From: an uncultured bacterium | GTDB lineage: Bacteria; CSSED10-310; CAZUFC01 | DNA length: 64,000 nucleotides | NCBI GenBank assembly: GCA_964619725.1 | Contig: CAZUFC010000028.1 | Span: 1 to 64,000 of the forward strand | Direction: 5' to 3' | Shown: positions 10,091-59,872 of the stretch, one piece after another | Layout of the letters: each line of letters begins with the position of its first letter | Position numbering within the stretch: position 1 is the first letter of the stretch | The notes under the pieces: model-generated | Seen by the model: the letters and a program-made list of their open reading frames with translations, nothing else | Databases searched by the model: none | Told to the model about the DNA's origin: nothing | Translations under genes and position numbers: made by a program

Positions 10091-11236
10091 TTACTGCATT
10101 TCTTGAGTTTCCTGTTCAGAGTCCTGTTTTGCATTATCTTTTTTTTCCTGGTATTTGGGATCAAATTTCGGCGCTGCTCGAAGATAACCCGATATAGGAA
10201 CAGTGATGTTTTTCTGATTTTCTATATTCGTTTTGATATAAAGGTTTCCGTCAATGCTTCCGGGTTCGACGGGCGGTATCAATTGGATTAGAAGCATAAT
10301 TTTCCGGCCTGGCATCAGAGTTTTCTTTTCGATTTTAATGTCTTCTCGATCAGAGGAAGTTTCCAGAATTTCTAATTCCTTGTTCCCTTCATTTTCGATG
10401 ATGATTCTTTGTTCAGCGCCCTCAGCGGCATCAATAAACCTAAAATAGCAGTGAGTGGGCACAACTGAGAGAGGCCCTTTGATTCTGCCTCTAACCGGGA
10501 CTTCTATTCTGGGCTGTCTCGCCATGTTCGTATTAAGGAATAAAGTTTCCGAGAAAAAACCGATCGGCAGTCCGCCGTCAATGGTCATATGAACGGTCCA
10601 GGCTGAACCATCCTCTGCCGGTTTTTCCAATTCCGCCTGTATGTGATCGGAGGATGTTTCCAAACCGATGATTTCGGCTGAATAATCCGGAACTCGCTCT
10701 ATTTTTAATTCGGTCTTTATTTCTTCGTGCGGAAGGCTCTCGTTAAAAAACACGTATGCCGGTTTCGGAATGAAAGCGCTGATTATATTCCCGTAAATCT
10801 TCAAATTCAATACCGGGCGTTGAGGATCATTCGTTCGAATTGTAACGGTTTTACTGTCTGGTCCCAGTTTTTTCCCTGCTTTGTAGGTTACCGTTATCTC
10901 GGCAGATTCGCCTGGTGCGACTAATTTCTGTTCCATGAGAGCAGTAATGCAGCCGCAGGCCGAAAATATATCGTATATTTCCAGTATGCCCGTTCCTTTG
11001 TTTTGCAATACGAAGTTTTTCGTCAGTTCCTCATCAATAAACAGTTTTCCGAAATCAAATTCAGTCTCAGACATTTGAATATGGGGTCCGTAAAATTCAG
11101 TTTCCTGGGATTCTACATCAGCGTCCCCGCTGTCTTCCGTTTGTTGAGCCAGTGAGACGGGCGTGCTGTTGCATAAAACCGCAAGTAAGAACAAAAGGAC
11201 GTAAGAACGAAATTTACGGCGAAAAAGTGATTTCAT
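10091..11236 (-). CDS. Secreted DUF1573 / multi Ig-like domain protein
   Basis: Signal peptide; FDFG...NKGTGILEI...SACGC...APGESAEITVTY...TNDP typical of DUF1573, followed by two more Ig-like repeats. Confidence 0.8.
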   Translation of the reverse strand: MKSLFRRKFRSYVLLFLLAVLCNSTPVSLAQQTEDSGDADVESQETEFYGPHIQMSETEFDFGKLFIDEELTKNFVLQNKGTGILEIYDIFSACGCITALMEQKLVAPGESAEITVTYKAGKKLGPDSKTVTIRTNDPQRPVLNLKIYGNIISAFIPKPAYVFFNESLPHEEIKTELKIERVPDYSAEIIGLETSSDHIQAELEKPAEDGSAWTVHMTIDGGLPIGFFSETLFLNTNMARQPRIEVPVRGRIKGPLSVVPTHCYFRFIDAAEGAEQRIIIENEGNKELEILETSSDREDIKIEKKTLMPGRKIMLLIQLIPPVEPGSIDGNLYIKTNIENQKNITVPISGYLRAAPKFDPKYQEKKDNAKQDSEQETQEMQ

Positions 11237-40490: not shown

Positions 40491-42035
40491 ATGAAACATT
40501 TCAAAAAGCAAATAATGCCGAAGTTTTTGACGATTATCGCCCTCATTTTTGTAAGCGTTTGGGCTGAAAAAACGATCTGCGCTGAACCGGGAACTCCGAA
40601 CGATTGGAATATAGAACTGATTTTATTTGCCGAAGGATTGGACAATCCTGTCGATATCGTTCACGCTTTCGACGGCAGGTTGTTCATTTTGGAAAAAGCG
40701 GGTTACATCCGCATAGCACGGCCCGACGGCAGCCTGGAGTCGACTCCTTTTCTGGATATTTCAGACAGGGTTACATCGACCGCTTCAGAGCAGGGTTTGC
40801 TGGGACTGGCGTTTCATCCTGAATATTCGGAAAATGGTTACTTTTATGTGAACTATACGGACTTAGAGGGAGATACGGCGGTTTCCCGATTTGAAGTCGA
40901 TGATAATGATCCCGATCAGGCTGATCCGGGAAGTGAAACTCTAATCCTGGGCATTTCACAGCCTTTCGATAATCATAACGGCGGGGACCTCGCTTTCGGA
41001 CCTGACGGATATCTTTACATTTCGACAGGAGACGGCGGAAGCGGAGGCGATCCGGGAAATCGATCTCAAAACCTGGAGGATTTACTCGGTAAAATCCTGC
41101 GAATTGATGTGGACGGGACAGCGCCTTACGGCATTCCTCCCGACAATCCTTTTATTGACGATCCGGCAGCCTTGGATGAAATATGGGCGTGGGGATTACG
41201 GAATCCCTGGCGCTTTTCTTTTGACAGGGACACCGATGATTTCTTCATAGCAGACGTCGGTCAGAGCAACTGGGAGGAGATAAATTATCAACCGGCTGAC
41301 AGCCAGGGCGGAGAAAATTACGGATGGAGATGCTATGAAGGCAACCATGAATTCAATACCAACGGTTGCGCTTCCCCCGATGAATACGTTTTTCCCATCT
41401 TTGAATACGATCATGGATCGGGATGCTCTGTAACCGGCGGTTACGTTTACAGAGGATACCTTTATCCGGAATTAAACGGCGCCTATTTCCTGGCCGATCA
41501 TTGCAGCGGGGAGTTCTGGGCTTTGGCGCCCGACGGCCAGGGCGGCTGGTCGGAAACTTCGCTTGGAATAGTACAATCCGGCATTACCTCTTTCGGTGAA
41601 GATCAAAACGGCGAACTGTATATCGCTTCATATTTTGAAGGCAAAATATATCGAATAAAGCAGGCCGATGCCGACTCCGATCTCAAATTGAATATTAGTC
41701 TCAATCAAAGCATGTACGAAAAAGGTGATCGATTTCTGCTGAATCTGCAATTAATAAATTATGAAGAACCTCTTAACGCTCAATTATACCTCTTCCTGGA
41801 CCCGGGCACGGGGAATGAATTCTTCTTCTGGCCCTCCTGGTGCCGGTACCCCGATTGCGTTGACTTTGAAACAGTCAATCTGCCGCAAAACTCCTTCGAA
41901 TCGAATGATCTCCTGGACTTCACCTGGCCGGCTGATGCCGGCAGCGCTCAAGGATTCTTCTTTTACGCCGGACTCGTCGATCCTGAAGCAATGGAATTGA
42001 TCGTCATGGATTCTGTTGATTTTTCCTACCGATAA
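40491..42035 (+). CDS. Secreted PQQ-dependent sugar dehydrogenase (GSDH/Asd family) with shared C-terminal domain
   Basis: EQGLLGLAFHP, NHNGG.LAFGPDGYLY, GKILRID, GLRNPWR, ADVG, NYGW, SFGED; AAGGAGG RBS. Confidence 0.92.
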   Translation: MKHFKKQIMPKFLTIIALIFVSVWAEKTICAEPGTPNDWNIELILFAEGLDNPVDIVHAFDGRLFILEKAGYIRIARPDGSLESTPFLDISDRVTSTASEQGLLGLAFHPEYSENGYFYVNYTDLEGDTAVSRFEVDDNDPDQADPGSETLILGISQPFDNHNGGDLAFGPDGYLYISTGDGGSGGDPGNRSQNLEDLLGKILRIDVDGTAPYGIPPDNPFIDDPAALDEIWAWGLRNPWRFSFDRDTDDFFIADVGQSNWEEINYQPADSQGGENYGWRCYEGNHEFNTNGCASPDEYVFPIFEYDHGSGCSVTGGYVYRGYLYPELNGAYFLADHCSGEFWALAPDGQGGWSETSLGIVQSGITSFGEDQNGELYIASYFEGKIYRIKQADADSDLKLNISLNQSMYEKGDRFLLNLQLINYEEPLNAQLYLFLDPGTGNEFFFWPSWCRYPDCVDFETVNLPQNSFESNDLLDFTWPADAGSAQGFFFYAGLVDPEAMELIVMDSVDFSYR

Positions 42036-46850: not shown

Positions 46851-48119
46851 CTATTCACCCCAGGTAAATCCCCAACTGCCTAAATTTCCTACCATATCAT
46901 TCACGCCCGGATCGGTTATCGCCCCATAAAAGGTCGCTTCGCCGGTTCCTGCTCCGCCGGGCCAGTAAAACTCCCCGATAATCCTGTAAGTCGACTCGCC
47001 CACCGGTATAACCGGGTAAATCGACCGGTAATCATCCAGGCTTTCCGTGAACGACGGACCGAAAAAATAACTCCCGTAAACCTCCAGAATGATGAATAAC
47101 GGATAATTATCTAAAGCGTATCCCTCGCTGTTGCACACGATCGCATCCAAAAGACACCAGTCGTTCTGGTGATATTGAACGCAGGGCATCCATAACTGAA
47201 CGCCCGTTTCATAACAATCATGATACGTAGGAGACGGCGCAGGCGTATGAACCGGCGTCGGCGTCGGCGTTGACGTCGGACCGCTCGTCCATCCCGCCAT
47301 CCTCGCCATCATCCACCAGAACGCTCGCCCCTTTAAATTGCAGTTTAAAGGCTGAGAATGCGCGCAATCGCAATCCCAGCACAAATCTGAATCGGGGTGC
47401 TCCGCACACCACTCCTGAGCCCAGTTCCCGCCGTCGTAATTGCAATTGTCGTCCGCACCACGGTCCAAAAAATATTCTCCGTCAGGATCGTAACTCTCAA
47501 TGTCCGCAAAATCGAAAAGTATCTTGTTATGAGCGACGCAAAAATCTCGAATCTGATTATTGCGTATATGTAAATTCCCCCCTTCTCCGCTGCCGTCCAA
47601 ATGACCCGTCATATAAATGAATTGAACTCCCGGATAGTCGTTCTCCAATTCCGCCATGGCATTCAAATATATGTTTATACCCTCTTCAGTGTTGTCCGAT
47701 ACTCCACCGCACCACGACCACATCACGACATTCCTGTCATTACCGGGACTGTTCATCTGATCTCGCGTCATCTGTTCCCACGCCAGATCGCCGTTATGAC
47801 CTAAATCTCCGTATACCTCCTGATACGAAAGGGCCCCGCCGGAACCGGATTCATTAAAAGTGTAAGGATATCCGTAGTGTGACTGAAGATTCTCTATTCC
47901 CGTCGTTATCTGGCTGCCATGCGACGTATGACCGTACCATATCCTGAAATTTGTCCTTGCCGCATCGATATAACTTTGCGGAACTTCAGCGAGTCCTGTG
48001 CAGTTATGATCGATAACTAACGCCGATGCCCCTTCAAAGCCTGAAATTAATAATATTGATAATATTCCTGTAATTATTATGGTTTTCCCCCGACGATACC
48101 AATTAACTTTTCCTTTCAT
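46851..48119 (-). CDS. Secreted hypothetical protein (HTSHGSQ family) with PT linker and shared C-terminal domain
   Basis: Signal peptide; IIDH...YGHTSHGSQ...WSWCG...YMTGHLDG...FDFADIES...HSQPLNC; TPTPTP linker; GGAGG RBS before ATG 48119. Confidence 0.85.
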   Translation of the reverse strand: MKGKVNWYRRGKTIIITGILSILLISGFEGASALVIDHNCTGLAEVPQSYIDAARTNFRIWYGHTSHGSQITTGIENLQSHYGYPYTFNESGSGGALSYQEVYGDLGHNGDLAWEQMTRDQMNSPGNDRNVVMWSWCGGVSDNTEEGINIYLNAMAELENDYPGVQFIYMTGHLDGSGEGGNLHIRNNQIRDFCVAHNKILFDFADIESYDPDGEYFLDRGADDNCNYDGGNWAQEWCAEHPDSDLCWDCDCAHSQPLNCNLKGRAFWWMMARMAGWTSGPTSTPTPTPVHTPAPSPTYHDCYETGVQLWMPCVQYHQNDWCLLDAIVCNSEGYALDNYPLFIILEVYGSYFFGPSFTESLDDYRSIYPVIPVGESTYRIIGEFYWPGGAGTGEATFYGAITDPGVNDMVGNLGSWGFTWGE

Positions 48120-48444
48120 GACTCCTCCCAAATATTAAAGTTTTACTTTATATTTCTTGCCGGGTGAAAAAGGAACCGGCTTCCGGCGGCGGCAATTGGG
48201 TTGACCGACAGAGATTTGATGCTGAGAGGGACCCGTCTTGTCAAGGATTCTCAGCAGGACCGGCTTTTTTTTCATTCCCGAGAAATATCAAACCGAACTG
48301 TTGAACGGCGCCTGGTGAAGATTTACTTCGGACGTGCAAGGAATTTTGAACGCCCGGCATTCCCTGTCATCATATTAATCAAATTTCAGGAAGACTTCAA
48401 GAATCAATTTTAAGAGCGATGAATCTAAATAAGGGGGTGATGAA

Positions 48445-50109
48445 ATGCAAAAGAAATATTTATTTTTTTTGATATTGGCGGCGGTTTTGACGTGGAATGT
48501 TAAGGCGCCTTGTGAAGCCAACGTGCGGTTCGATTCCTGGACGACGGGTCCGGTAATATATCCTGGATTTGGAGGAGCTTATGATGCAGGGTCAGCGCTT
48601 GACCCTGAGATATACTGGGATGGAGATGAATTTCGCCTGTATTACACGGCGGTTGATGCTGCAGGAAGGCATCACATTGCACTGGCGCTGTCGCCGGATG
48701 CATTGACGTGGAGGCCGTATGGGATTGTCTTTAAGGGCGGTGAGGAAGGATTTGACGCAGGCGGCGTATCCGACCCGGCGATAGTAAGAGCAGAGGAAGG
48801 GTTCAGACTTTACTACACCGGGCATTCAATTTCTGAGACGTTATCTGTCGGTTTAGTGGAATCTCCTGACGGTTATTGGTTTTCCAGAAACACGGGTAAA
48901 CCCCGAAGAGTATTATCGGGATCAGGCAATCCTGGGCTTTTCGATGAGACGGGAGCGAGCAATCCTTCGGTATTGTTAAGAAACGGAGTGTTCATGATGA
49001 TGTATCAGGGACACGACGGAACAGTGTGGAAGCGTTTGGGATTAGCTATATCTCAGGATGGCGAGAGCTTTTTAAAGATTCAGGGTGATGAAGGAAAAGG
49101 CGCGGTATTCGGATTGGGGCCGCATGGGTTCGATGATGCCGGGGCTTTGGCTCCAGAATTGTGGTCGATTGATGATGATGTTCGGATGTTTTATACAAGT
49201 CTCCATTACTGACTGGCCAGCCCGATGTATCGCATAGGTTATGCGACGAACGGATTCTTTGATTGGATCAGAAGAGGCCCTACCGTGGAAACGGGCCATT
49301 TGCCGGGATGGGATCAGATGCACGTAAGATCGCCGTCGGTTTTTTCCATTATGGGATTCACGCTTCTCGCCTATGAAGGTTGGGATGAATCCGGACCCAC
49401 TGGAATAGGTTTTGCCCTGGGTCGGGAACGCTGGTTGATTCCTTCGGAAAGTGAATTATATTTCTACTCAAAACAGGGGTACGATGCGCCTTCGCAGGAA
49501 ATTGAAGTGCACAACAGAGGTTTGGGTCCGTTATCGATAAGTGAGATTCAATTACCTGAGTCAGGTTTTCAGGTTTCTGTTCCCGATACGCCGTTAACAT
49601 TGGAGTCAGATGAAAAAACCGTTATTGAGGTCCTGTTCGAACCGGATAATTTCGGCTCCTATGAAGATGAAATGGTAATTTTGAGCAACGATCCGCTGGA
49701 GAGCAGGATACTCCTTGAACTGCAAGGGTATTATTCGAATATTTCCTCAGCCGATGAATTAAATTTGAACCTCAACATGCCCGCCGATTTCTATAATCCA
49801 TCGGACTATTTCTATCTGGATATTACTGTTGAAAACTCAACGCCGATACCCATTACCGATCAGCGTCTGTTCGTGATATTGGAAATTGACGGAAATTACT
49901 GGTTTGCTCCTGAATGGCAGGCTGAACCCGGCATAGCCTCCTGGTATGAAATCGCTATTGAACCGGGCATTCAAACGATAAACGTTATTCCTCAATCGAG
50001 CTGGCCGGAAACTACAACGTCGCTTGATGCCGTTTTTTACGCCGGCATTACTGATCCGAAAGCTGAACGACTGTTGAGCAACGTGGCGAAATGGGAATTC
50101 GGTTGGTAA
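48445..50109 (+). CDS. Secreted five-bladed beta-propeller glycosidase-like protein with Ig-like and shared C-terminal domains; in-frame TGA at 49210-49212 (candidate selenocysteine)
   Basis: ORFs 48445..49212 and 49225..50109 are in the same frame, separated only by one TGA; five D-x5-P...Y..G..I-G-hA blade repeats run across the stop. Confidence 0.75.
49222..49253 (+). promoter_or_regulatory. Putative bacterial SECIS element
   Basis: TCGCATA-GGT-TATGCGA perfect 7-bp stem (49230-49246) with a G-first apical loop 24 nt after the TGA; lower CCG/CGG pairing. Confidence 0.6.
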
Positions 50110-56290: not shown

Positions 56291-58291
56291 TCAGCTTTTA
56301 TATTTCCTCACCCATTCGATAAATTGTTCCGGCTTGATCAAACCTGTTCTGTGAGAAACCGTTTTTCCCGTGGAATCGATGATGATGTAAGAAGGTAAGC
56401 CTGTAGGAACATTTGCAATCTGATAGTAGGATTTCAGAAGGTCCTTCAATAACCGTCCGCCTTCGGTTTCCAGCGATTCCGCCTGAATTTTGATCAGAAT
56501 GAAATCATCCAGCGCCGCTTTCGCCCTTTCATCTTCAAAAGTGGTTTTGTCCATATGCCGGCAATTTTTGCACCATGTCGCCCAGAAATCCAGGAATAGG
56601 GGCTTATTCTTTTGAACGGCCATGTCGCTGAAGTCCGGAATCTGTTTTTCATAGTGGAGCCATTCCTGACGAACGGGTTCTCCAATCTTCGCTGTTCCCA
56701 GCGACAAATCGATCCAGTTCAATCCGATCATTCCGTCGCAGACCAGCAATGCGCCGGCGATAATGAGCAAATACGCCGTTCCTCTTTTCAGCCGCTCTAT
56801 AACGGAGGGAGCTTCCGGCATAACGGAGCCCAATCCGAAAAAGACGGAGCTCAAAGTGAAGAAAATGCCCCAGAGCAACCTGGAGACACTTTCATTGTGA
56901 AATAGTTTTCCCGTATAGTAAACAGCGACGGCAAAAATCATGAATGCAAAAATGCGCTGCACCGATTTCATCCAGACTCCGCTTTTCGGAAGCACATTGA
57001 CGGCCCCGGAAAAAAGGGCCAAAACTATAAACAGAAGCCCCATTCCCCAGGCGAAAATAAACAGGCCCCAGAATCCCAGAAAATAATTTCCGGTTTTGGC
57101 GATAAACAACAGCAGGCTGAGGATGATCGGACCTACGCAGGGAGCGGCTATAAAACCCAGCGCCAATCCCATCAGAAGAGCTCCGACGTACCCTTTTTTG
57201 CCGGATACCTGCACACGGCTGGACAGCCAGTAAGGCAGACGAAATTCAAAAGAACCGAGCAGCGAAAAACCGAGAATGACGAAAATGACTATTAGAGGAA
57301 CGATTACGAAAGGATGATTGGAGTAACTCCCGAAAGTTTCTCCCGCACCCGCGGCGAAAAGTCCCAAAGCGGAATATGTTATAGATATTCCCAGCACATA
57401 GACCAACGCCAGCGATAAGGTTTTGGATTTCTTTTCACTTCCCTGCCGGGTAAAGAAGGCGACAGTGATCGGAATCATAGGAAAAACGCACGGAGTAAAC
57501 GATGCTGCTATGCCCAGAAAAAAAAGCGTTAATAATGCCGTGAATGAGCCCCTGGTTCTGATTATTCTTTCAAACTGTCCTTCCGCTTCTTCAGGTACGG
57601 CATCCGACTCTATTGAGGAAGGCATTTTTTCTACGGTTTCCTTCGCAGCGCTCTTCCACACCCAGGACAGCTCCTGTTTCGCCGCTTCTTTGAATTTTTC
57701 GGGAAATTCCAGGTCCGACACAGCCTCCATAAATTCGTTTTTATTCCTGACGCCGGGCAGCTCCCCTGTATCGGGCGATACGGTCAACGAAAAATTTTCT
57801 TTTTTATCGACGGGCGGAGTGCAGACGCCCGTTGCATCGTTGCAGCTCTGCCACCCGTATTCGAATTGAAAATCCGCTTTGTCCTGATTGAGACCATCCG
57901 GGATAAAACAAATGAAAAGTGCATAAACGACATCTTTATAAACTTTCGTATCAAACTGCTTTTCAATTTCATACGAGGTGTAAAAGGGCCCGGCGATCTC
58001 AATCGAATCCCCAGACTGGAGGCGGGTATAAAGAGGATAGGTAAAATCCTCATCATAGGAATAAGAATGATGAAAAATATGCTGATTTTCGGCGATGTCG
58101 AATTTTGCGCCGAATAATATTTGACCGCCTTGAATAGCTTTGTCTGCTGAAAAGAACCATTCGGCTTCAACCGGACCGGTCGATGAATACTGAGCGTTCG
58201 TTCCGAATGAAAAAGAAATCAGTAAAATTATGAAAATTAAAAAAACTCGTTTTGTGAAATCTAAGCATCCGAATCGATTTAAACCGGACAT
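56291..58291 (-). CDS. dsbD: Thiol:disulfide interchange protein DsbD-like
   Basis: N-domain QSCNDATGVC; TM domain FTPCVFPMIP and AAPCVGP; C-terminal thioredoxin WATWCKNC. Confidence 0.88.
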   Translation of the reverse strand: MSGLNRFGCLDFTKRVFLIFIILLISFSFGTNAQYSSTGPVEAEWFFSADKAIQGGQILFGAKFDIAENQHIFHHSYSYDEDFTYPLYTRLQSGDSIEIAGPFYTSYEIEKQFDTKVYKDVVYALFICFIPDGLNQDKADFQFEYGWQSCNDATGVCTPPVDKKENFSLTVSPDTGELPGVRNKNEFMEAVSDLEFPEKFKEAAKQELSWVWKSAAKETVEKMPSSIESDAVPEEAEGQFERIIRTRGSFTALLTLFFLGIAASFTPCVFPMIPITVAFFTRQGSEKKSKTLSLALVYVLGISITYSALGLFAAGAGETFGSYSNHPFVIVPLIVIFVILGFSLLGSFEFRLPYWLSSRVQVSGKKGYVGALLMGLALGFIAAPCVGPIILSLLLFIAKTGNYFLGFWGLFIFAWGMGLLFIVLALFSGAVNVLPKSGVWMKSVQRIFAFMIFAVAVYYTGKLFHNESVSRLLWGIFFTLSSVFFGLGSVMPEAPSVIERLKRGTAYLLIIAGALLVCDGMIGLNWIDLSLGTAKIGEPVRQEWLHYEKQIPDFSDMAVQKNKPLFLDFWATWCKNCRHMDKTTFEDERAKAALDDFILIKIQAESLETEGGRLLKDLLKSYYQIANVPTGLPSYIIIDSTGKTVSHRTGLIKPEQFIEWVRKYKS

Positions 58292-58333: not shown

Positions 58334-59872
58334 TCACTGCCTCAATATCGCCTCAAGCTCTATAGACTTCACCGGCCTGCCGTCACGCTTAAAGAGATTG
58401 AGCCTGTCGGCGCTGAAAAGATAAATGATTTCATCGGAAGTTACAATAACGCTTTCGATATGATGGCCGGTTTCAATTATTTTATGCGGTTCGGCCTGCC
58501 GATCGCTCCGTTTCCAAATGCTTGCCTTTCCTTGTAAATACATTGTTTCGTCATCGTGAATGACGACATTCTCGATTATTTCTCTCTCAGGAAATCTTAT
58601 TGCCGCGCTGTCCCATCCGTCAGTCACCCTTTTTTTCTCATACAAACCTTCCGGGGTTTGAATGATAAGACGCTGATAAGAGTTCTGGAAAAAAGACATT
58701 TTTCGTATCCAGGGAGTCCTGCTTTGCGTCCCGACAGTTTCAGACGAAAAACGCGTCCAGAAGTTCATTCCCGGCTTTCGTTCATAGAGCCCCCCGCCGA
58801 AAATCGCACAATAAATGAGGTTTTCTTCTGATGAAAAGGCCAGCCCGGTCACTTCACCGTAGTGTTTGTTTTCTATCAGCGACTTGAGGTTGCGAGAATA
58901 CAAGCTCCATTCCTTGCGGACATCCGTTGACAGGTAAACGCCGTCCAGAGTACCGGCCAGGAATATTTTCTCACCGGCTTCTTTCAGACATATTAGTTCA
59001 GTTATTTCTGCAGGAGGAGCAGCGCAAGGAGCGGGAGAAGCGACGGGATATACTTCATAGAGCGATCCGGCGGACGTCGTGCCGAAGACGCGATTATCCG
59101 CCTCAAGAAATTCAATGCAATATTCGGGCAATTCCGCCCGGTCGATTATGGCCGGCGTTAGCTCATTCGGATTTATCAGGATTCTGGCAAGTTTACGGTT
59201 TTTGCCGGCGATGAAAAATTCATTATCCGACAGAGCTGCGACAGCCGTTATCATTTGGGAAGGTTCGCCGGCTTTTTGTCGTTCGACTGAACTTAATGCT
59301 TCAAAACGCCAGATCAGCAGCGACAGTAAAATAACGGCGAAAGCGGAAGAGAACGTTTTAATTGATGACCACCAGGGTTTCAGAAGATTCAGGCCGAATC
59401 TTGCAGCCAAAAAGGGGCATATTATGACAGCGGTCAGATAAGCGACCCGGCCAGCCCAGAGAGTGATGGAATAAACCGCTGCCATGCCGAAAATCGAACC
59501 GAATATCGTTTTCCACAGTGAGACTTTCACATTCATTCGTTTTGATTTGACGTAGACGGCGAATCCGCAGCCCGAAGCAACGATGAACGGTCCGATGTGC
59601 CATATGGTGAATGAAACATAACTGGTCAGCAGACTGCTGGGCAAGCCCCCAATAAATTTCTGAATCCATAAAAAAAACGCTCCTGCTGCGGGAAGAAACA
59701 GGGCCGTAACGACGGCGCCGATCAGAGAAGCGCTCCATAACGCTCTAAAATCGCAATCGGCCATCTCATCCGATCCTGGAACCGATATTATTTGCAGTCC
59801 CATTCCGCATTTACTGCAAATAAACGCTTCTTCCGTATTCGCGGTACCGCAGCGGCTACATTTTATCGTCAT
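58334..59872 (-). CDS. Zinc-ribbon + multi-TM + beta-propeller-like hypothetical protein
   Basis: CSRCG...CSKCG; about 5 TMs; AGTLDGVYLSTD-type BNR/propeller motifs. Confidence 0.7.
   Translation of the reverse strand: MTIKCSRCGTANTEEAFICSKCGMGLQIISVPGSDEMADCDFRALWSASLIGAVVTALFLPAAGAFFLWIQKFIGGLPSSLLTSYVSFTIWHIGPFIVASGCGFAVYVKSKRMNVKVSLWKTIFGSIFGMAAVYSITLWAGRVAYLTAVIICPFLAARFGLNLLKPWWSSIKTFSSAFAVILLSLLIWRFEALSSVERQKAGEPSQMITAVAALSDNEFFIAGKNRKLARILINPNELTPAIIDRAELPEYCIEFLEADNRVFGTTSAGSLYEVYPVASPAPCAAPPAEITELICLKEAGEKIFLAGTLDGVYLSTDVRKEWSLYSRNLKSLIENKHYGEVTGLAFSSEENLIYCAIFGGGLYERKPGMNFWTRFSSETVGTQSRTPWIRKMSFFQNSYQRLIIQTPEGLYEKKRVTDGWDSAAIRFPEREIIENVVIHDDETMYLQGKASIWKRSDRQAEPHKIIETGHHIESVIVTSDEIIYLFSADRLNLFKRDGRPVKSIELEAILRQ

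Follow-up and report, generated by a model that had tools for sequence, protein, structure and literature searches.

The locus described here lies on the forward strand of a 64,000-nucleotide stretch of DNA (contig CAZUFC010000028.1, positions 1 to 64,000; hereafter the window) from an uncultured bacterium of the phylum CSSED10-310. Open reading frame (ORF) calling gives two ORFs in the same frame, 48445..49212 (255 aa) and 49225..50109 (294 aa), with a single TGA at 49210-49212 between them, the junction reading ...VRMFYTSLHY-TGA-LASPMYRIGYAT.... This TGA is the sole in-frame TGA of the gene, and translation through it gives a product of 554 residues with the TGA as codon 256 and a TAA stop at 50107-50109 (Table 1). 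An initial annotation, made from the letters alone, had proposed such a 554-residue protein with selenocysteine (Sec) at residue 256, and the read-through translation agrees with it. Comparison with its homologues makes it very probable that the gene encodes a true selenoprotein, the first to be described of a new family. The product would be a single exported protein in which a signal peptide, a GH130-like beta-propeller and an Ig-like domain are followed by a C-terminal domain specific to this genome. Its UGA-256 would be decoded as Sec by SelA/SelB/SelC/SelD, directed by a selenocysteine insertion sequence (SECIS) stem-loop that the codons for Arg-Ile-Gly-Tyr-Ala would form 17 nt downstream. 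Whereas this decoding mechanism is the already known one, the family is unusual because of its GH130-like fold, its putative export and its lack of a redox motif.

Table 1. Features of the candidate selenoprotein gene, in window coordinates
Feature	Position	Strand	Remarks
Whole candidate selenoprotein gene	48445..50109	+	554 codons + TAA, one in-frame TGA; orthologues read alike
Putative Shine-Dalgarno-like site AAGGGGGTGA	48431..48440	+	before ATG 48445; read from sequence
Predicted signal peptide MQKKYLFFLILAAVLTW...	48445..48519	+	residues 1 to ~25; pattern MQKK + hydrophobic run + VKA/CEA; helix 2-17 in model
Five-bladed beta-propeller, GH130-like fold	48526..49443	+	residues ~28-333; AlphaFold2 strands, Foldseek
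TGA, probably read as Sec, residue 256	49210..49212	+	in blade 4, where strand 2 turns into strand 3; preceded by the invariant His254 and Tyr255
SECIS-like element	49222..49253	+	upper stem-loop 49230-49246 (7 bp, loop GGU) + 3-bp lower stem 49222-24/49251-53
Ig-like domain (HYDIN/VesB-like; 'choice-of-anchor D'-like)	49450..49737	+	residues ~336-431; Pfam PF22544, model strands
C-terminal domain, ~119 aa, common to many secreted proteins of the genome	49750..50106	+	no family match; pLDDT (predicted local distance difference test) 53-81

The two ORFs differ in their starts. The first begins 7 nt past a G-rich Shine-Dalgarno-like site and opens with a signal-peptide pattern, whereas no Shine-Dalgarno-like site can be read in the 12 nt between the TGA and the ATG at 49225, and the second ORF carries no signal peptide; the initial annotation had read both halves in the same way. 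These differences bear on the alternative that two genes are present, namely a secreted N-terminal half-propeller and an independent C-terminal protein starting from ATG 49225. Gene callers do split the sequence there, and one database protein (P0044) is the called downstream product. Besides lacking start signals for a second gene, the split would fall inside a propeller blade, and the Cys homologues described below are single chains, which makes two genes a very improbable arrangement.

Homologues were collected with residues 1-335 as query, the TGA being written as X, in an exhaustive search that used no profile and returned 3444 proteins at E <= 1e-3, most of them generic blade repeats. 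Word-index searches proved too insensitive, as the whole protein gave two weak matches only and the first 80 residues of the second ORF recovered only the window's own downstream product. Six cluster representatives stop exactly at query residue 255 and end in ...HY (HF in one of them): P0008 (46% identity), P0009 (50%), P0010 (46%), P0012 (41%), P0042 (34%) and the fragment P0083. Three of these sit on contigs of 52,958-132,847 bases and are therefore not cut by contig ends. Full-length relatives carry Cys at the column, reading HYCLDG in P0006, HYCVSC in P0016, HYCVTC in P0017 and HYCVTR in P0024. The motif at the column is HY[U/C], the putative Sec forms reading HYULAS, HYULEG, HYULDR and HYULAG. 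Among 156 proteins (the 150 best matches plus cluster members), every one that has the Y-x-x-x-H-Y motif in register shows either Cys or the protein end at the column, and no residue other than Cys was found there in the motif-bearing members. Thus, the Trp, Arg or Gly that the initial annotation had named as marks of a simple nonsense mutation do not occur among them.

At the DNA level, the gene was found in 6 of the 14 genomes of the phylum. The column is TGA in the source genome, in G003 (50% identity) and in G004 (45%), the latter two being members of two other genera of the same small phylum, whereas it is TGC in G006 and G001 and TGT in G002. In one scan each of genome and metagenome contigs with a single peptide pattern, a JGI metagenome contig (L043) provided a fourth TGA form and L044 a TGT form. 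The distinct Cys forms known from DNA number three, as L044 repeats one of them over the stretch compared. Counted as clusters, seven have TGA or the protein end at the column and four have Cys; the seven comprise the four TGA forms seen in DNA and three assumed ones whose DNA was not seen, the genes of the window, G003 and G004 being assumed to fall in the 50% clusters of three of the shortened representatives. This TGA/Cys pattern is the classical Sec/Cys signature.

The same comparison bears on a recent nonsense mutation, which would leave a pseudogene, a 255-residue fragment or no product at all. TGA is the usual stop in this genome, and a single base change turns the TGC or TGT of the neighbouring Cys forms into TGA. 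The four TGA loci, however, share only 40-55% identity upstream of the TGA, and six more clusters end at this very column. Past the TGA, the reading frame of all four forms is conserved and runs without further stops or frameshifts to a proper stop 170-298 codons on. Downstream identity is 0.34-0.47 between U forms and 0.34-0.56 for U versus C pairs in the closer clade (the window gene, G003, G004, L043 and G006), and it scales with upstream identity. In a tree of the N-terminal parts (13 of the 14 rows, the 101-aa fragment P0083 being left out), U forms surround the Cys form G006, the shortened P0042 is sister to the distant Cys clade, and branch lengths are 0.2-1.1 substitutions per site. 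A nonsense mutation cannot be maintained at a single column across distances of this size while the frame beyond it remains intact. A 255-residue product would moreover split blade 4. The orthologues already contradict a nonsense mutation, which we regard as most improbable.

The source genome is a 9.17-Mb draft of 344 contigs, 90.9% complete, with an estimated contamination of 6.5%. Such a draft, assembled at low depth, leaves room in principle for a sequencing or assembly error at the TGA. Positions 49210-12 are nevertheless covered with 0 differences by Logan contigs of three runs, X1 (possibly the source run) and X2 and X3 (other samples of the same microbial mat metagenome study). Since these contigs agree on the TGA, a private assembly error is excluded, and independent assemblies of other genera show the same TGA; we give an error of any kind hardly any credence.

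The Sec machinery, whose absence from a complete genome the initial annotation had named as a refutation, was found in full in the source genome. It comprises a tRNA-Sec (78.6 bits; called SeC by ARAGORN, anticodon TCA), selA (551.2 bits), selB (377.5 bits) and two selD genes, one of which has an in-frame TGA of its own. Across the phylum, selB scores above its cut-off in 13 of the 14 genomes and tRNA-Sec is found in 13 of 14, the genomes missing one or the other being assemblies of 69% and 60% completeness. G003 has both selB and tRNA-Sec, whereas in G004 (60% complete) selB alone was found. One in-frame TAG interrupts this selB match (G004:C192:11246-13129); a pseudogene, an error of assembly or some other cause may lie behind it. 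In the source genome, ordinary genes stop at TGA more often than at any other codon, TGA ending 1137 of the 2439 frames of at least 400 aa, and a genetic code in which TGA is a sense codon is therefore excluded.

The initial annotation had pointed to a perfect stem with a GGT loop behind the TGA. The hairpin TCGCATA/GGT/TATGCGA is indeed present, with a perfect 7-bp stem that begins 17 nt past the TGA and a loop that starts 24 nt past it. Only two distinct perfect hairpins (at least 6 bp, loop of 3-6 nt) occur in the 1665-nt gene. The second one, at 48587-48607 in the coding sequence of blade 1, has an 8-bp stem (CAGGGTCA GCGCT TGACCCTG). Genome-wide, a hairpin of at least 7 bp with a GG-containing loop lies 14-30 nt downstream of 33 of 37,448 sampled coding positions and of one of 1,684 real TGA stops.

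The stem is encoded by the codons of a conserved strand, Arg-Ile-Gly-Tyr-Ala (CGC AUA GGU UAU GCG), and the CGC ... UAU GCG codons are used in all four TGA forms. The stem-loops read U-CGCAU-A GGU U-AUGCG-A in the window, C-CGCAU-A GGU U-AUGCG-G in G004 (one compensatory change from U-A to C-G), CGCAU CGGGU AUGCG in G003 and UCGCAU CGGGU AUGCGA in L043. The hairpin is thus kept in four of the four TGA forms, whereas G006, the closest Cys form, lacks it. As a degree of self-complementarity is already favoured by the peptide, synonymous-codon shuffles were made, with codons drawn at random by genome usage in 20,000 trials. For the four TGA forms, they reach the observed stem in 0.47%, 8.2%, 0.41% and 1.7% of cases; among the Cys forms, the corresponding shares are 95% (G006), 69% (G001) and 16% (G002). 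As the four TGA sequences are related, these figures are not independent, though synonymous sites should saturate at 40-55% protein identity. Conservation of the hairpin, raised by the initial annotation as a test, therefore goes beyond the constraint of the peptide in the TGA forms, whereas the hairpin is lost in G006 and reduced or partly kept in G001 and G002.

When positions +3..+50 are folded, the hairpin in this register is part of the minimum-energy structure of all four TGA forms (-10.3, -13.0, -8.6 and -10.4 kcal/mol); in a 70-nt fold of G003, a shifted hairpin is preferred. The published model of the bacterial SECIS (bSECIS), as given in a figure legend, has a loop of 3-9 nt, a stem of 4-16 bp, G in the first two loop positions, a distance of 16-37 nt from the UGA and a minimum free energy <= -7.5 (PMC13188914, Fig 2 legend). 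With loops of 3 or 5 nt (GGU or CGGGU), stems of 5-7 bp and loop starts at 23-24 nt, the hairpins of the TGA forms fall within this model as scored by a custom script in place of bSECISearch. An Rfam scan of 49100-49400 returned no SECIS family, only three chance snoRNA-like matches far below their gathering scores. Similar G-rich small loops follow the TGA in known selenoprotein genes of the same genome, another comparison foreseen by the initial annotation: GGUC and GGUC in two peroxiredoxin genes, AGUUG in a TlpA-like gene, and CGGGC and CGGGC in two DUF1573 genes.

An AlphaFold2 model built on a 14-row alignment (mean pLDDT 84.8, mostly above 90 in the propeller) has five blades of four strands each, then an Ig-like domain, and at the C-terminus a beta domain predicted with less confidence. 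Residue 256 stands in blade 4, at the turn that links strand 2 (245-255) to strand 3 (260-268), so that the model and the ORF calls bear out an interruption inside the fourth of five blades. The Ig-like domain that the initial annotation had placed in the second half matches Pfam PF22544 (HYDIN/VesB-like) over residues 350-428, with 30.6 bits against a cut-off of 25.5; the NCBIfam model NF012200 (choice_anch_D) stays below its own (23.2/45). The Sec position lies in the propeller, about 95 residues before this domain. The tail described from the start as shared, residues 436-554, matches 134 places of the genome in one search and 138 in a tblastn search, 129 of the latter ending no more than 5 residues from the stop. 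In every point that could be checked, the earlier description of the locus was correct.

This C-terminal domain of about 119 aa, for which neither Pfam nor NCBIfam gives a match, is also present at 46860-47210 (-) and 41670-42002 (+) of the window. Its appearance is that of a C-terminal domain for sorting or anchoring, specific to the lineage. In three distant Cys homologues, P0016, P0017 and P0024, a stretch of this type is internal and is followed by a rhodanese-like domain.

The propeller resembles that of GH130 enzymes, also five-bladed. The best single-domain Foldseek matches are 7fir_C, 9fj8_A and 5a7v_B, with template modelling (TM) scores on the target of 0.71, 0.72 and 0.65, and they include named GH130 examples such as the beta-1,2-mannobiose phosphorylase 7fip/7fir and BT3780 (5a7v); GH117, GH43 and GH32 come next. 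Identity in these matches is, however, only 13-18% (18% for 7fir_C), and the family profile matches GH130 structures at E = 1e-20 over blades 1-3 only, with the HY[U/C] region outside the alignment. The Pfam GH130 model PF04041 scores 16.6 bits on the whole protein and 20.1 bits on the first ORF against a cut-off of 26, and the NCBIfam GH130 equivalogs remain far below their cut-offs (20.6/450 for the best of them). On account of these scores, the protein is not filed under GH130. D53 ('LDPE') aligns with the Asp of the GH130 'EDPR' motif, which we take to be the catalytic residue; this position is S, Q or E in P0042, P0016 and P0017. We know of no GH130 enzyme that uses Cys or Sec.

Invariant or nearly invariant positions of the family are F166, D167, G225, G228, D230, D231, G233, R247, Y250, T251, H254 and Y255. 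Since strand 1 of a blade starts on the face where strand 2 ends, we infer that the G-x-G-P-H-G-F-D-D loop opening blade 4 and H254-Y255-U256 may be neighbours forming a working site. Sec or Cys comes directly after the invariant His-Tyr with which strand 2 ends, and by strand topology it would share a face with the loop. Next to His and Asp, the selenol or thiol may serve as a nucleophile, as a redox or sulfur/selenium-transfer site, or as a metal ligand. With such a His/Asp/Sec centre on blade 4, the protein would depart from GH130, whose glycosidase or phosphorylase centre works by acid/base chemistry.

A lead on the chemistry comes from the distant Cys homologues P0016, P0017 and P0024, which correspond to G001/G002 and L036/L037/L041/L042/L044. 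They are fusions of about 650 aa that line up the propeller, the Ig-like domain, the C-terminal-type domain and the rhodanese-like domain. The rhodanese region of P0016 matches PspE/GlpE/MoeB-type models below their cut-offs, and those of P0017 and P0024 are read from the alignment. P0016 and P0017 further show CxxC at the Sec/Cys site (HYCxxC). Together, the rhodanese fusions and the CxxC point towards thiol/selenol chemistry, possibly sulfur transfer.

Several points weigh against the interpretation of the gene as a selenoprotein gene. The six shortened representatives are known as protein only, and the stop codon there is assumed to be TGA. The initial annotation had looked to raw reads for confirmation of the TGA; the TGA itself stood in the contigs of all three runs, but this support is made of assembled Logan contigs instead of raw reads and comes from one study at a low depth of 3.7-7.9. 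Folded alone, the 66 nt that start at the TGA do not exceed shuffled sequences in stability (z = -0.14), so that the single-sequence argument is suggestive only and the weight falls on the comparative data. The conserved peptide itself gives part of the hairpin potential, and the distant Cys forms G001 and G002 keep a 3-5 bp version. Covariation is weak as well: pairing holds in 25 of 28 cells, 5 of the 7 pairs show no variation, a single compensatory change is seen and 76 of 500 shuffles equal the score; the argument at the RNA level therefore rests on synonymous-site invariance in four related sequences. Finally, the proposed active centre is derived from strand topology and conservation, not from coordinates.

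The weak covariation also leaves some room for a UGA that is read through or decoded without Sec-tRNA, by near-cognate Trp or Cys insertion or by a suppressor, the hairpin only slowing the ribosome or two products being made. UGA followed by C is a weak termination context, and C follows the UGA in all four TGA forms. Against this stands the column itself, which is Cys in every non-TGA homologue, a hallmark of Sec. The TGA-bearing organisms also have selB, plus tRNA-Sec where the assembly allows, and loop and spacing fit both the bSECIS model and the loops of the other selenoprotein genes of this genome. Decoding without Sec-tRNA is unlikely, and insertion of Sec at residue 256 is preferred.

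The gene shares with known bacterial selenoproteins such as FdhA, SelD and peroxiredoxin the in-frame UGA, the Sec/Cys pairing, TGA orthologues in other bacteria that use Sec, a full selABCD set and a stem-loop whose small apical loop (23-24 nt past the UGA here) is led by G. It differs from them in having neither a thioredoxin-like fold nor, in the putative Sec forms, a UxxC/CxxU motif. DUF1573 selenoproteins are likewise Ig-like domain proteins of the extracytoplasmic space with Sec (UGC motif in PMC13188914 Table 1). An identity with them was rejected, since the Ig-like domain scores only 15.3 bits against the DUF1573 cut-off of 26.1 (residues 350-428) and the Sec position, residue 256, lies outside it in the propeller. 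Rhodanese-like selenoproteins and sulfurtransferases recall the rhodanese-like domain of P0016, P0017 and P0024; the window protein, however, has no rhodanese domain, and its Sec would not stand in a rhodanese active-site loop.

Catalogued families of prokaryotic selenoproteins number over 110, Table 1 of a 2026 review listing 119 families or subfamilies, and most characterised selenoproteins have a thioredoxin-like fold or a redox motif according to this source (PMC13188914). That table contains no propeller, glycoside-hydrolase-like or HYU-motif family. The main texts of PMC13188914, PMC9312934 and PMC12013277 make no mention of a propeller or a glycoside hydrolase, though their supplements could name candidates. 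In the open full-text literature, no beta-propeller, GH130 or glycoside-hydrolase selenoprotein was found, a prior mention in supplements or subscription journals being possible. The CSSED10-310 genome announcement does not mention selenium (PMC8248873). NCBIfam release 20 holds many selenoprotein models and gives none above cut-off for the protein. The expectation of the initial annotation that Sec in such a fold would be unusual is in line with the catalogue table and with NCBIfam.

Sec in a putatively exported GH130-like propeller without a UxxC/CxxU motif would widen the range of folds and compartments in which selenium is used. It would also give one more selenoprotein to an uncultured and rare phylum, nearly all genomes of which have Sec machinery. 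Residue 256, together with His254 and Asp230/231, may offer a concrete handle on an uncharacterised enzyme family. In every database record examined, gene callers split or shorten the TGA-form genes, and the family is therefore invisible to ordinary annotation.

A further-reaching possibility, which we hold to be rather doubtful, is that the protein is the founding extracytoplasmic selenoenzyme on a glycoside-phosphorylase-like propeller, with Sec forms outnumbering Cys forms. The selenol, together with the invariant His beside it and the Asp-Asp loop of blade 4, would then carry out a chemistry new both to selenoproteins and to the fold. In sulfidic sediments, extracellular substrates might be acted on by metal-dependent catalysis, or sulfur or selenium might be moved by chalcogen transfer; a hint in this direction comes from the distant Cys relatives, with their CxxC and their rhodanese fusions.

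The orthologues are flanked by genes for an FBPase, GreA, a PHP-domain protein and an M29-like peptidase, and the neighbours in the window are a creatininase gene, a papain-like peptidase gene and an aspartyl-protease-like gene. No functional hint emerges from these neighbourhoods of the window gene and its orthologues.

A genome-wide look at TGA-interrupted frames gave 456 candidates for which a paralogue spans the TGA. In most of them the paralogue has G, R or S there, and the list was swamped by probable antisense-frame artefacts. Such apparent frames occur on many contigs (e.g., C2:120-140 kb, C8:11-27 kb, C34, C171 and C203). Most of those with G/R/S paralogues are taken as antisense frames of large paralogous families, in a draft for which 6.5% contamination is reported.

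A screen for Sec/Cys paralogue pairs gave 21 rows with Cys at the TGA column, five of which were accepted as known families. These are two peroxiredoxins with FTFVU, on C25 (TGA at base 58843, +) and C71 (base 25361 of the reverse-complemented contig), a TlpA/thioredoxin-like gene with UGYC on C16 (TGA at base 57744 of the reverse-complemented contig), and two DUF1573 genes on C27 and C139 (GUGS/GUGC). The selD gene on C204 (C204:698) is a sixth selenoprotein gene of a known family. The selenoproteome is larger than this list, because the screen finds only genes that have a Cys paralogue in the genome. The C27 and C139 genes are consistent with the 'UGC' family of DUF1573 selenoproteins in the catalogue. 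A UUCCCC-CGGGC-GGGGAA hairpin is common to the two, and its loop begins some 40 nt past the TGA, slightly beyond the usual 16-37 nt. The window itself holds a Cys paralogue of these two genes, a DUF1573/Ig-like protein with the motif ACGC at 10091-11236 (-).

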